Of a stretch of DNA of 64,000 nt, positions 59,244 through 64,000 are shown in pieces. The stretch spans positions 15,764 through 79,763 of the forward strand of contig JAEWEG010000058.1 of NCBI GenBank assembly GCA_023389575.1, written 5' to 3'. Both the position numbers and the translations under genes were made by a program. The notes under the pieces were generated by a model. That model was not told where the DNA came from. It saw nothing but the letters and a program-made list of their open reading frames with translations, and did no database searches. Each line of letters begins with the position of its first letter. Positions within the stretch are counted from its first letter, which is position 1. The stretch is from Chloroflexota bacterium (GTDB lineage: Bacteria > Chloroflexota > Chloroflexia > Thermomicrobiales > UBA6265).

Positions 59244-59863
59244 GCGCGCGCGGTTTCTGGCAATGGGCGCCGACAAGGTACCAATTGAAGAGAGTCCGGT
59301 TCCAAGGCAGAGAGATGAATCTCGCGACCAGCACGTAGCCCTGGCGGTGCCAAAGTCCAGGCTGCTGGGCCAGGTGTCACGGCGGGTCCACCGTGCTCGC
59401 GACGTGCTTGGAAACCGTGCCGCGATACGTGGAGATCCAATCATGCCAGGATCGCGGGGGGCGGTCATGGTCCTGGTTTCTCGGTCATGCGCTGGCGTGC
59501 GCATGGTCCCATGCCGGGAACTAGCGAGTCACGGGACCATGCGCCAGCACCTACCGGTTCGAGGCGGAGGGAAGCGAGAACAGCCCAGCCAGCCTGTGAT
59601 CGAATGGTCCTGTTGATTTGAATAGGCCAAAGTGGTTATTGCTCCAATCTGGCTTCGGAATATTCTGGATATCAGGGTCTTAAACTTCTATTCGGCTGCC
59701 GGCAGTTGATTTGGGAAGATTTTCTTCCTTGCCGGACATTCCGGATCTCGATTGGACGACGCGCCAACCGGTCGCGGCCATGTGGGCCACGGCGAGGGGC
59801 TGGCCGCGTGGTTCGCATCCCGGGACTATGATCCATGAGGCCATCCCGTGGAGGAGAGCGGCG

Positions 59864-61243
59864 GTGAGCGGTGATGAGGTGCGCGGCAACGAGGTCCCCA
59901 CGACGATCCTTGAGATCGCCTGGAAAATGCTTTGGACAAGAGGATCGCCCTACTATCTTCCGAATCTCATCCTGAACGGCGGGTCCGGCGACGGTCATAC
60001 CGTTCCCCCATTGGGAAGCCGCTCGATACCCGACCTTGGGCCATTCGCCCTGTTCGACAAGAAGCCATGGGGGACCGTGGCGGTCTCGCTGGATCACAGC
60101 TCCCTCTCTGGCCTGGACACGATCCAGGACCAAGGATTCACCTATGACTCCGCGACCAGCGCCTTCACCGCCAAGGTCGGATTCAGCCAGGTCGCGTTGG
60201 CCGGCAGGTATTCGGTGACCGGGTCCGGACTCGTGGGTTGCGCGGTGGCTGGAGTCACAGGCCTGCTCGGACTCTTCCCGACCGAACGGAGCCTGGTCGC
60301 CGAGGATGGGGACGAATTCGACGACGAGCACATCGAACTCGCGCAGCAGTACCGCTCCCAACTTGTCCAGTCTCCGTCGGGCCTGGAGCTCGTCTCGAAC
60401 TACTACGACAACAACGACGCCATGAACGAGATCGTGCGGGGCGACACCTATTTCCACACGGTCTTCCCCACGCTCCAGACCGATGGCAAGACGTCGAAGG
60501 ACTATGCAAGCCAAACGACGCTCGCCGCCAGGAGTCCTGACGACCCCAATCAGACCGTCGGCAATCCTTCCTACCGGCTGCATGCGTTCAAAATGCAACT
60601 CGCCTTCGCCAAATCAGCACAATCGCTGTACGAGCAGACGGGCGACACGAAGTACACCGACGCGGGGAACGCGAAGAATACGTTCAACGCCCAGGTCGAT
60701 AACTCGGGCATCCCGGGCGCGACCACCGTTGGAAACGTAATGGCGACCGTGCGATCCATCACGCTTGAGCGGCTGGAGGGAATAACCGCCCAGGACCAGA
60801 CGCCGTTGACGGCCGAGTACGAGGCGGTGGCCCGCGAGATCGACGAGGACTACGACCGCTGGCGCGAGGCCGGAAACGTGGACAGGCCCTTTTCGGCGCT
60901 GGCGAGCGACGTCGCGGCGTCACTTGGGGATGGCACCTTCCATGATCGCTTCGGCGTGCCGAGCTTCACCCTGAACGGAACGGTCACCGTTACCGGCCAG
61001 GTACCCGATGTCAAACTCACGGTCAATCTCACCAGTGCTTCCGCCGACCTGCCCCAGATCGATATTTCGCTGAGCACCTCGCACCCCGACACGCTTTACG
61101 ACGAGGTGGTGAAGGCGTTGGGGAAGGCCCAGTTCGTCAAGGATCTGATGCGACGGAAGCTGAACGACGAGCTCTCCAGTCAGCAAGTGGTCGGATGGCT
61201 TTCGGACCGGATCAACGATGCGCTGACGAAGGCGCTGGGCTAG
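59864..61243 (+). CDS. Hypothetical protein, possible TULIP (JHBP/Takeout/BPI-like) lipid-binding fold
   Basis: ORF from 59711; likely GTG at 59864, 6 nt after GGAGGAG. LSGLDTIQDQGFTYDSATSAFTAKVGFSQVALAGRYSVTGSG and the C-terminal amphipathic helix (VKALGKAQFVKDLMRRKLNDELSSQQVVGWLSDRINDALTKAL) resemble TULIP barrels. The fold call is by eye only. Confidence 0.5.
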   Translation: MSGDEVRGNEVPTTILEIAWKMLWTRGSPYYLPNLILNGGSGDGHTVPPLGSRSIPDLGPFALFDKKPWGTVAVSLDHSSLSGLDTIQDQGFTYDSATSAFTAKVGFSQVALAGRYSVTGSGLVGCAVAGVTGLLGLFPTERSLVAEDGDEFDDEHIELAQQYRSQLVQSPSGLELVSNYYDNNDAMNEIVRGDTYFHTVFPTLQTDGKTSKDYASQTTLAARSPDDPNQTVGNPSYRLHAFKMQLAFAKSAQSLYEQTGDTKYTDAGNAKNTFNAQVDNSGIPGATTVGNVMATVRSITLERLEGITAQDQTPLTAEYEAVAREIDEDYDRWREAGNVDRPFSALASDVAASLGDGTFHDRFGVPSFTLNGTVTVTGQVPDVKLTVNLTSASADLPQIDISLSTSHPDTLYDEVVKALGKAQFVKDLMRRKLNDELSSQQVVGWLSDRINDALTKALG

Positions 61244-61285
61244 GCCGCGCGGAACCCTGGTCTGGATAGCGCATTGGAGGCAGGA

Positions 61286-62599: not shown

Positions 62600-63679
62600 A
62601 TGGCCCAGATTCGCCTCGTCTCCTGGAACATCCAGGTCTATGGGCCCGACAAGTACGCGATTACGCCGAATAACCAGTGGGTGGCCGAACTTGCCTGCGA
62701 GACGATTCTCCACACGGGAGCCACGGTGGTGGTGTTGATGGAGTTGATGTCGAGCGTGGCGGTGAATATTGCCGGCAGCATTGCGCTGGGACTCGGTCAG
62801 TTAGGCGCAATCCCGTGGTCCTGGTACGTGACCCAGGCGCGGCCCGGGGCAGACCGGGAGAGTTACGCCGTACTGTGGCGGAACGGTGGCGTGAACTTCG
62901 CGCCAATCGCCGGCGCGGAGGGGCTGGCCGCGAACGAATTTCCGAACAACTTCTCGGCCACGCATGGCCGCCGCGCGGCGTACAAGACGTTCAGGACGAC
63001 CGATACGAACAACAACTTCGCGGTGGCCGTCTATCATGCCCCGCCAAACAACCAGGCCGTGATGGGTGTCGAGTCGCTCTCCCAGATGACGGCCGCCTAC
63101 ACCGTGAACAATGGCGGAGCGGTACAGAACGTGCCCAGCCGGATGCTTGCTGGCGATTACAACATGGACGCGGTCAGCGATGCGGCCTATTTTCAGCCGC
63201 TCACCAACCCGCTTCCCGCTCCCCCCGCGGTTCCGCCGCCAAACCTCGCCACAGGCCAGGGAGCCGGGTGCACCCCCGGCAATCCCGGCGGCGCGATTGC
63301 CACGAGCACGCTCCTGGGCACCCTGAACGATGCGCTCCAGTCATACGGTGGCAATGTCAACGCCTGGCCAGCCGCTTCGACCGCCTATCGCCGCAACAAT
63401 TTCGCCATCGACAACATCTACCAAGCCGCGAGCGCCTTCAATGGTTTCTCGGTGATCGATGTTCCCTCCCTGATACGCAACCCACCGCCGGGCTCGCCCA
63501 TTCGCAATATTGCCAATGCATTCGTGCTCAGGCGGGCGAATGGCACCGACGCCTTCCCCCACGCGAACACGTTCCCGCCTCCAATGAATGTGGCCCTGAA
63601 CAGCATGGGGTGGGCGTTCCTCTTGTACCGGTACGCGATCAGCGACCACCTGCCAATCTTGACCGACGTGACCGTGTAG
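62600..63679 (+). CDS. Endonuclease/exonuclease/phosphatase (EEP, DNase I / sphingomyelinase-fold) family protein
   Basis: Ordered EEP motifs LVSWNIQ, VVVLMEL, AVAVYHAP, LAGDYNMD and the C-terminal ISDHLPI. Long Pro/Gly-rich insertion; no signal peptide. Confidence 0.75.
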   Translation: MAQIRLVSWNIQVYGPDKYAITPNNQWVAELACETILHTGATVVVLMELMSSVAVNIAGSIALGLGQLGAIPWSWYVTQARPGADRESYAVLWRNGGVNFAPIAGAEGLAANEFPNNFSATHGRRAAYKTFRTTDTNNNFAVAVYHAPPNNQAVMGVESLSQMTAAYTVNNGGAVQNVPSRMLAGDYNMDAVSDAAYFQPLTNPLPAPPAVPPPNLATGQGAGCTPGNPGGAIATSTLLGTLNDALQSYGGNVNAWPAASTAYRRNNFAIDNIYQAASAFNGFSVIDVPSLIRNPPPGSPIRNIANAFVLRRANGTDAFPHANTFPPPMNVALNSMGWAFLLYRYAISDHLPILTDVTV

Positions 63680-63701
63680 TTCACCCGGAGCGCGATCCAC
63701 C

Positions 63702-64000
63702 ATGTCCATCGACACCATCTACGACACCCTCGCCCAGGCGGCCCCGGATGACCAGCTCGACCTGTCTCCAAATGCGTTTGGCACGGGGCCGATCCAGTCA
63801 CTGTTCACCACCTACCTTCCAGGCGATGGGCATCTCCGGGGCCATGTTCAGTCCCTCGCAAAGGATTCGACGCGAGAACGGGTTGCCCTCGTCGCCACCG
63901 GCTCCGCGGCGCCGCTCAACAAGACCACGTTTACGGCGTATTTCTCCGACTCCACCGAGGGCGTACAGGTCGAGTTGTCCGCCGAACCGGCTGACGGCTG
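63702..64000 (+). CDS. Hypothetical protein (5' part; runs off the window)
   Basis: My own translation: MSIDTIYDTLAQAAPDDQLDLSPNAFGTGPIQSLFTTYLPGDGHLRGHV... is open to the window end. It starts 22 nt after the EEP stop, with GGAG upstream. Confidence 0.5.
   Translation, partial: MSIDTIYDTLAQAAPDDQLDLSPNAFGTGPIQSLFTTYLPGDGHLRGHVQSLAKDSTRERVALVATGSAAPLNKTTFTAYFSDSTEGVQVELSAEPADG

Follow-up and report, generated by a model that had tools for sequence, protein, structure and literature searches.

In bacteria, P47/OrfX, YceB and TipA are among the few characterised proteins with the tubular lipid-binding (TULIP) fold, and it is mostly unknown what they bind in nature. The known bacterial TULIPs comprise P47/OrfX2, YceB, DUF4403, DUF2140 and DUF2993 (PMC6791001) as well as TipA (bioRxiv 10.1101/2025.09.09.675085). 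One type of multi-TULIP operon has already been described, orfX-p47. Here, we report on a six-gene cassette (g1 to g6), the first two-thirds of which (g1-g4) form the end of a 64,000-nucleotide (nt) stretch of Chloroflexota DNA, contig JAEWEG010000058.1 (the whole analysed stretch is called the window below). The cassette codes for three proteins predicted to be TULIP-like (g1, g2, g6), a putative enzyme with the endonuclease/exonuclease/phosphatase (EEP) fold (g3), a giant orphan protein (g4) and a polyprenyl diphosphate synthase (g5). We tentatively read it as a self-contained module that makes and carries one isoprenoid lipid.

Clostridium botulinum and other bacteria possess orfX1-3/p47 clusters, which are similar in several respects. 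These clusters are tight operons, too, encode several TULIP-fold lipid-binding proteins of differing sizes without a classical enzymatic annotation, and are mobile and patchily distributed. In addition, OrfX2 is among the top structural matches of g2. In contrast, no sequence relation to P47 was detected (no Pfam P47 match at E<=0.1 in 68 g2-family members), and the best matches of g2 are of the head-to-head BPI/CETP/LBP type. Conserved adjoining genes for neurotoxins or insecticidal toxins are lacking; one RHS neighbour was found in a single lineage. Furthermore, the polyprenyl diphosphate synthase, the EEP enzyme and the Takeout-like single TULIPs are additions of the cassette that have not been reported for orfX clusters (PMC7020563). 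A second related case is TipA/TipB of Bdellovibrio, where a bacterial BPI-like double-TULIP is encoded beside probable binding partners, with an adapter in its operon (bioRxiv 10.1101/2025.09.09.675085). Both the TipA and the g2 family include double-TULIPs fused to extra domains. Compared by description, TipA is secreted into the prey and has a small beta-sandwich partner, whereas the partners in the cassette are TULIPs and enzymes.

An earlier note on this DNA, made from the sequence without database searches, knew of no described operon with TULIP and EEP genes. Likewise, our literature search found no description of an operon that combines TULIPs, an EEP enzyme, a polyprenyl synthase and a giant orphan. 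Pfam and NCBIfam have no family for five of the six cassette proteins, among them the 1,359-amino-acid (aa) orphan. New are sequence families without a Pfam or NCBIfam model, bacterial Takeout/JHBP-like proteins and the fixed association of TULIPs with a giant orphan, an EEP enzyme and a polyprenyl diphosphate synthase.

Composition and distribution of the six-gene cassette

In the window, four consecutive genes occupy positions 59864-64000 of the + strand with spacers of 42, 30 and 22 nt (Table 1). When the open reading frames (ORFs) were re-read, order, strand and spacers were as the earlier note had given them. It had also assigned a GGAGG-like ribosome-binding site to each gene. This was found for g1 (GGAGGAG, 8 nt before GTG 59864), g2 (GGAGG) and g3 (AAGGAGC), while g4 is preceded by a weak GGAG only. 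The g1 ORF had been placed correctly at 59711-61243, but 59711 is its mechanical start only. Most likely, translation begins at GTG 59864 and yields 459 aa, because this codon has the GGAGGAG sequence upstream, two homologues also comprise 459 aa and the N-terminal length then equals that of the Chloroflexota orthologue.

Table 1. Features of the cassette and its upstream region (window positions; L001 is a metagenomic contig with the same locus)
Feature	Position	Strand	Description
tRNA-Gly(TCC), intact	55953-56028	+	left repeat copy; ARAGORN; Rfam tRNA 71.8 bits
Pseudo-tRNA-Gly, degenerate	~59110-59185	+	from alignment; neither ARAGORN nor Rfam calls a tRNA there
Terminator-like GC-rich hairpin, then T-run	59210-59235	+	directly after the pseudo-tRNA; upstream limit of the operon leader
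Leader	59236-59863	+	~630 nt; no credible gene, no sigma-70 consensus
g1	59864-61243	+	459 aa; predicted Takeout/JHBP-like single TULIP domain with helical insertion
g2	61286-62569	+	427 aa; two homologous halves, each helix/beta-meander/helix; N-terminal strand before helix A
g3	62600-63679	+	359 aa; predicted metal-dependent phosphoesterase, EEP fold (DNase-I-like)
g4	63702 (ATG)-64000, runs off the window	+	first 99 codons; full protein 1,359 aa on L001
g5	L001, beyond the window		343 aa; trans-polyprenyl diphosphate synthase; Pfam polyprenyl_synt 173.6 bits vs 27-bit cut-off
g6	L001, beyond the window, 31 nt after g5		319 aa; unannotated; g1-related

Through an exact match of g3, the locus was also located on L001, a contig of 78.7 kb from a metagenome, where window position 62600 corresponds to position 10001. 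The end of the operon, expected by the earlier note beyond 64000, is present on this contig. The gene order is g1, g2, g3, g4 in full length, g5 and g6. The stop codon of g4 overlaps the start codon of g5 (ATGA). After g6, a gap of 190 nt is followed by an unrelated creatininase-family gene and a gene for a MalT/LuxR-type regulator.

All six genes were found in identical order, with similar sizes and with unrelated flanks everywhere in at least six distinct lineages. Among them are Sorangium sp. So ce394 (L004), an unrelated contig from a metagenome with adjoining copper-resistance genes (L005), metagenome-assembled genomes (MAGs) labelled Sphingomonas (L011, L012), a Pseudomonadota MAG (L013) and a further metagenomic lineage with a 42 % identical g2 (L014). 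On a cut-off contig from a seventh lineage (L015), g1-g4 are arranged in the same order. Two Chloroflexota MAGs (L008, L009) carry a rearranged form with a g2 identity of 33-35 %. Here, the order is g2, g1, synthase gene, two genes for proteins of 224 and 235 aa, g6, a gene for a 433/449-aa g1 paralogue and g3. In L009, one more gene comes after g3; it codes for at least 854 aa and shows a weak, collinear resemblance to g4. This means that g1, g2 and the EEP gene occur together across phyla down to ~30-35 % identity. Since their co-localisation survives deep divergence and a change in gene order, the objection considered in the earlier note, that homologues of g1 and g2 might never be co-localised with the EEP gene in other genomes, does not apply.

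The g2 family is real but rare. An exhaustive HMMER search among 1.84 billion representatives yielded 233 clusters at E<=1e-3. Only this search revealed the size of the family; word-index homology searches detected few relatives (7 for g2, 2 for g4 and 11 for g1). A scan for the locus pattern with a narrow alignment, which reaches close relatives only, found 2 of 185,579 species genomes and, therefore, underestimates the prevalence. The patchy distribution across phyla and the unrelated flanks indicate that the cassette moves horizontally as a unit. Horizontal acquisition had been proposed earlier because of a tRNA-Gly att-like remnant. The proposal can be retained on the new grounds; the tRNA-Gly basis was lost (see last section).

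In the Sphingomonas-labelled lineage, a 3,637-aa RHS/YD-repeat protein that contains a LysM domain is encoded upstream of the cassette, its gene ending at a distance of ~8 kb (L011/L012, 1-2161). Genes for a TonB receptor, an ABM-domain protein, a 639-aa unknown protein and a ferritin-like protein are located in between. This RHS gene was observed in one lineage only.

Predicted properties of the encoded proteins

None of the six cassette proteins has a secretion signal. For g1-g4, neither inspection of the N-termini by eye nor Kyte-Doolittle scans revealed a signal-like segment. This agrees with the earlier statement that Sec or Tat leaders are absent. The upstream 404-aa neighbour has an obvious signal. 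Comparison of the g1-g4 window proteins with Pfam, NCBIfam, PADLOC and PDB sequences yielded nothing significant, the only hint being MnuA for g3 (E 0.038). PADLOC was searched with g1-g3 and the g4 N-terminus. Family profiles of g2, g3 and g4 had no significant match among PDB sequences either.

At the fold level, g2 is predicted to be a BPI/CETP-like double-TULIP. Its AlphaFold2 (AF2) model was built from a 6-sequence alignment and has a predicted local distance difference test (pLDDT) score of 55 and a predicted template modelling (pTM) score of 0.54. pLDDT reaches 60-80 in the N half and is below 50 in the C half, so that only the N half is moderately reliable. The model comprises a strand (4-11), a helix (12-28), strands (34-59 and 101-148), a helix (155-178), strands (273-348), a helix (351-382) and strands (393-426). 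In a Foldseek search against 350,542 PDB chains, the first four ranks were occupied by CETP (E 2.9e-6, probability 0.99), LBP (1.6e-3), YceB (0.03) and OrfX2 (0.037). The internal repeat recognised earlier was recovered independently of the model: When the two halves of a 68-sequence family alignment were compared with hhalign, residues 8-193 aligned with 231-396 (probability 95.4 %, E 1.7e-8). In addition, LBP_BPI_CETP_C is the commonest Pfam match in the family (3 of 68 members, best E 0.0027), although it stays below the threshold. The window protein itself has no match to LBP_BPI_CETP or LBP_BPI_CETP_C above the gathering score, and Pfam P47 matches none of the 68 members at E<=0.1. Taken together, the structural matches, the internal duplication and the weak LBP_BPI_CETP_C similarity uphold the earlier assignment of gene 2 as BPI/TULIP-like at the level of the fold.

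Eukaryotic BPI/LBP/CETP proteins share with g2 a size of ~430-470 aa, two homologous domains in tandem, a strand at the N-terminus before helix A, the helix/beta-meander/helix units and a weak 'helix B + G-x-P-x-P strand' motif. In contrast to them, g2 is bacterial and apparently cytosolic, has neither a signal peptide nor a conserved disulfide and is encoded in an operon with lipid-synthesis genes, and the sequence similarity is not significant.

Several relatives of g2 deviate from the basic architecture. P0044 (717 aa) is a natural fusion of a g2-type double domain (5-425) and a g1/g6-type Takeout-like domain (453-711). On a 5-kb contig (L010, 1-4832), a g2 relative with 37 % identity follows two g6-like genes and adjoins two DUF2589 genes. 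This contig carries a 191-aa gene on the opposite strand and no EEP or synthase gene; it may represent a minimal, TULIP-only variant of the system. The P0044 fusion and the g6-like and g2-like neighbours on L010 argue that the two kinds of TULIPs work together physically. Other relatives have 600-880 aa with uncharacterised C-terminal extensions (P0043, P0045, P0049, P0060, P0063, P0065, P0150) or only ~300-330 aa (e.g. P0094-P0098, P0105, P0110). The latter cover the profile from 1 to ~303, i.e. one and a half domains. P0139 (1,808 aa) has 21 separate matches to positions ~43-85 of the g2 profile, which suggests that it either is a repeat protein composed of a single TULIP sub-element or represents an artefact of low complexity.

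g1 and g6 represent the second kind of TULIP-like protein. The AF2 model of g1, built from 11 sequences, has a pLDDT of 76 and a pTM of 0.62. It begins with a helix at the N-terminus and strands (40-120), which are followed by a disordered loop (122-153), an all-helical insertion of ~200 aa (154-350), a long hairpin (352-395) and C-terminal helices (411-458). The best Foldseek match is the locust beta-carotene-binding protein (9ink; probability 0.93-0.96, target TM 0.38-0.42), accompanied by the juvenile hormone-binding proteins (JHBPs) of silkworm and Galleria (3aos, 3a1z, 2rqf; target TM 0.42-0.45) and Takeout 1 (3e8t). Further matches are BPI, LBP, SPLUNC1/BPIFA1 and Der p 7. Nearly all of these matches are single-domain TULIPs. 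Pfam JHBP (PF06585) is the top recurrent match in the superfamily of g1, g6 and the 224-235-aa proteins (6 of 21 members, best E 2.5e-4, below the threshold), and the g1 window protein has no match to it. Both lines of evidence speak for the JHBP/Takeout-like nature of gene 1 that had been proposed earlier from the strand pattern. The arthropod Takeout/JHBP/beta-carotene-binding proteins, the size of whose single domain is also that of the 224/235-aa Chloroflexota paralogues, bind isoprenoid ligands, which fits the synthase of the cassette. Unlike them, g1 is bacterial, contains the helical insertion and lacks both the insect-type secretion signal and the N-terminal disulfide; it has a single Cys and no signal-like N-terminus. 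g6 has insertions, too.

Comparison with hhalign connects g6 to the 224/235-aa Chloroflexota proteins (probability 99.3 %, E 4e-20) and to g1 (probability 95 %, E 3.6e-8). Judged by these alignments, g6 is probably a third, Takeout-like TULIP homologous to g1. From this homology it follows that the cassette encodes three TULIP-like proteins of two kinds. The 433/449-aa g1 paralogue of the rearranged loci (L008 16606-17907, L009 16469-17818) lacks the N-terminal 'YYLPN' motif and retains the helical insertion as well as the C-terminal hairpin and helices.

g5 has both DDxxD motifs of trans-polyprenyl diphosphate synthases ('HDDIVD' and 'MDDLFD') and is conserved at 51-58 % identity. Its top 14 PDB sequence matches are heptaprenyl, octaprenyl, nonaprenyl and solanesyl diphosphate synthases, with farnesyl and geranylgeranyl diphosphate synthases ranking lower. 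According to the established chain-length rule, small residues at positions -4 and -5 before the first DDxxD motif fit long-chain enzymes, and such residues are present in the corresponding stretch of g5, 'MLHVATLIHDDIVD'. g5 is, hence, probably of the long-chain type and closest to C35-C45 enzymes. An encapsulin system was considered and rejected: The top NCBIfam match of g5 is an encapsulin-cargo polyprenyl transferase (173 vs a 450-bit cut-off), and a shell protein is absent.

g4 is acidic and has a single hydrophobic segment (1154-1178). No Pfam match was obtained in five orthologues, no relative among PDB sequences, no internal repeat in an hhalign self-comparison and no detectable relation to the other cassette families in hhalign. 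A BoNT/NTNH-like nature of g4 was rejected because Pfam and PDB sequences gave no match to any toxin or protease domain.

For g3, nine orthologues with 25-59 % identity were aligned. W9 N10, E48, H146, G185 D186 x N188, D271 N272 and S348 D349 H350 are invariant, and the ordered EEP motifs listed in the earlier note thus form an invariant catalytic set. A second histidine of the H146 type is typical of the DNase I, CdtB and sphingomyelinase (SMase) branch and not of ExoIII/APE1. Pfam Exo_endo_phos matches five of the nine orthologues (best E 2.6e-5) and not the window protein. The Chloroflexota orthologue covers the full model (1-225 of 225) with 24.2 bits vs a gathering cut-off of 24.5. Eight of nine members match the NCBIfam model of the membrane nuclease MnuA (NF045851; best E 3.4e-21), although the cut-off of 185 bits is not reached by the best member (76.5 bits) or the window protein (13.9 bits). 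ExeM/NucH matches three of nine members. g3 is not a housekeeping AP-endonuclease, the case the earlier note had wished to see excluded, as TIGR00633 (xth) matches only one of nine members at E 0.078. Among the named matches of the nine members, no lipid phosphodiesterase family was found. Since the nearest named relatives are of the DNase-I type, the phosphodiesterase acting on membrane lipids that had been postulated earlier is unsupported, albeit conceivable. By sequence, g3 leans towards the side of DNase-I-like nucleases rather than of sphingomyelinase-type enzymes.

With the EEP nucleases (MnuA, ExeM/NucH, CdtB) and the EEP sphingomyelinases, g3 shares the full catalytic constellation including H146. 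Apart from the low scores, it differs from them by the absence of a signal peptide or lipobox and by a Pro-rich insertion of its own at residues ~200-265 ('P-x-x-PPP...G-Q/E-G-A/S-G', in short 'PPP...GQGAG'). All cassette-type orthologues conserve this insertion, which the Chloroflexota type lacks. A role as a protein-protein or substrate loop is conceivable.

Possible functions of the cassette

In the reading that we tentatively favour, g5 would synthesise a medium- or long-chain all-trans polyprenyl diphosphate. The EEP enzyme g3 may trim the phosphate head group of this compound; this step is speculative and the weakest one. The hydrophobic product would be held inside the tube-shaped cavities of the three TULIP proteins. 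These probably form a physical complex, for which g4 might, speculatively, act as scaffold or membrane-docking partner. Such a complex would store the lipid, shuttle it between membranes or pass it to a target. An isoprenoid is proposed because the synthase is an invariant and translationally coupled member of the cassette and because structural relatives of g1 carry isoprenoids (beta-carotene, juvenile hormone, ubiquinone). The ligand of JHBP is a sesquiterpenoid. Takeout 1 was crystallised with ubiquinone, according to a statement in PMC6160090 that cites Hamiaux 2009. In addition, CETP, the top structural match of g2, carries neutral lipids (PMC6791001), which is in line with such a ligand. 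The synthase, the third TULIP-like gene and the 1,359-aa orphan, all beyond or extending beyond the window, argue for an endogenous isoprenoid ligand rather than for lipid being extracted from a target membrane.

A number of results weigh against this reading. The match of g2 is a local 3Di similarity combined with weak Pfam matches on a low-confidence model. The template modelling (TM) scores of its Foldseek matches are ~0.2 with root mean square deviations above 20 A, so that a global superposition is not established; the low confidence of the model would account for these values. The resemblance of the g2 N-terminus to mature BPI, on which the earlier note had relied, is statistically undetectable: With the family profile, hhalign against BPI (PDB 1bp1_A) gave E 0.088, which is not significant, and the weak alignment covers the helix-B/'G-x-P-x-P' strand segment and not the N-terminus. 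Furthermore, hhalign found no significant relation of the g2 family to the g1 family, the g6/224-235 family or g4. For g1, the Foldseek E-values are weak (>=0.035), as expected from the insertion of ~200 aa. All NCBIfam matches of g5 lie far below their cut-offs and no equivalog is reached; the length of its product is, therefore, derived from similarity only. The nearest named relatives of g3 are nucleases, and the polyprenyl diphosphate phosphatases known to us have other folds (PAP2, UppP). Finally, g4 accounts for a third of the coding capacity and is entirely unexplained.

A more far-reaching version is somewhat doubtful. It envisages a hitherto unrecognised type of bacterial lipid-protein machine, i.e. 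a cytosolic or unconventionally released complex of the three TULIPs on a g4 scaffold, loaded with its own EEP-processed C35-C50 polyprenyl lipid. It would be a bacterial counterpart of eukaryotic lipid-transfer particles and could store or shuttle the isoprenoid or deliver a nuclease or lipid payload to other cells. If so, isoprenoid carriers of the Takeout/JHBP type, for which arthropods have so far been the main source, would have relatives in bacteria that are linked to isoprenoid synthesis.

The main rival, which we regard as unlikely, is a toxin or antagonism complex. In that case, the g3 nuclease and possibly g4 would be effectors or translocators, the TULIPs lipid-binding accessory or delivery proteins like OrfX/P47 next to botulinum and insecticidal toxins, and the synthase would supply a structural lipid cofactor for them. 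The relatedness of the g3 family to secreted or membrane nucleases (MnuA, ExeM/NucH) would fit, as would the rank of OrfX2 among the g2 matches, the size of g4, which is like that of large toxins, and the patchy, mobile distribution. Moreover, orfX-p47 clusters are multi-TULIP operons that adjoin large toxin genes including those for RHS proteins and are reported near insecticidal toxin genes (PMC7020563), and one cassette copy is situated ~8 kb downstream of the 3,637-aa RHS/YD-repeat gene. However, this neighbour is confined to a single lineage, Pfam P47 was not detected in the g2 family, and g4 has neither a toxin domain nor any other Pfam match. Secretion signals, secretion-system genes and immunity genes are missing from all cassette copies, while an unchecked cytosolic DNase would damage its producer. 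A tightly coupled polyprenyl synthase would also be unprecedented in toxin loci. If a toxin complex is present instead of a lipid carrier, its delivery architecture would be new, with a relation in principle to that of OrfX/P47.

The coupling of the synthase to g4 and its 51-58 % identity could also be explained by a terpenoid natural-product cluster, in which the synthase provides the precursor, g4, the helical insertion of g1 and g3 are unrecognised tailoring or cyclising enzymes and the TULIPs chaperone the product. The occurrence in Sorangium, a prolific producer of secondary metabolites, is compatible with this, and the invariant residues of g4 and g1 could be catalytic. We consider it improbable: No copy of the cassette contains a terpene cyclase, P450, methyltransferase or transporter gene, the synthase looks long-chain and not C10-C20, and three carrier-fold proteins per enzyme are unusual for a biosynthetic cluster. 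Very improbable, in our view, is a module for lipid trafficking in the envelope or at intracellular membranes, or else a system for anti-phage defence in which membranes are sensed or perturbed and the EEP nuclease is the effector. The bacterial TULIPs YceB, DUF4403 and TipA are indeed tied to membrane lipid handling (PMC6791001; bioRxiv 10.1101/2025.09.09.675085), and nuclease effectors are generally common in defence systems. On the other hand, PADLOC gave no match for g1-g3 and the g4 N-terminus, and the flanks of the cassette copies are not defence islands. Except for the one hydrophobic segment in g4, no protein is predicted to be periplasmic or membrane-anchored. With 233 g2 clusters and 2 of 185,579 species genomes in the scan for close relatives, the cassette is too rare for a housekeeping function.

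The genetic link of BPI-like and Takeout-like TULIPs to a lipid-synthesis enzyme leads to a hypothesis on the ligand that can be tested directly, namely that it is a long-chain polyprenyl lipid. If the cassette carries or delivers such an isoprenoid, bacteria would handle lipids in a way not known before. This would also be relevant to how the eukaryotic carriers of the BPI and Takeout types arose in evolution, and a compact, portable six-gene system could be used to solubilise very hydrophobic isoprenoids.

Upstream region and other tRNA genes

The gene-free leader before g1 that was described earlier is present, and an Rfam scan of it found no match. Upstream of the terminator-like hairpin, the tRNA-Gly remnant observed before exists as a degenerate copy: At its 3' end, 47 nt (59139-59185) repeat the 3' half of the intact tRNA-Gly(TCC) almost without change, and an exact 21-mer of the repeat occurs twice vs 0 expected copies. 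The operon as cargo of a tRNA-Gly island, by contrast, had to be rejected because the repeats bracket the 3-kb segment upstream of it (56029-59185). The GC content of the operon (~0.63) corresponds to the window average.

The bracketed segment has a GC content of 0.54-0.57 at 57-59 kb vs ~0.63 elsewhere. On its minus strand, it carries a gene for an HI0933-like flavoprotein (57617-58885) and one for a secreted 404-aa protein with weak Pfam matches to WD40/PD40 beta-propellers (56172-57386). The segment has the appearance of a small island, integrated or decayed, that lacks an integrase. Other tRNA genes in the window form a cluster of three on the minus strand (22417-23093; His-GTG, Leu-CAG, Thr-CGT) or are located at 766 (Arg), 30989 (Gln) and 54755 (Pro).

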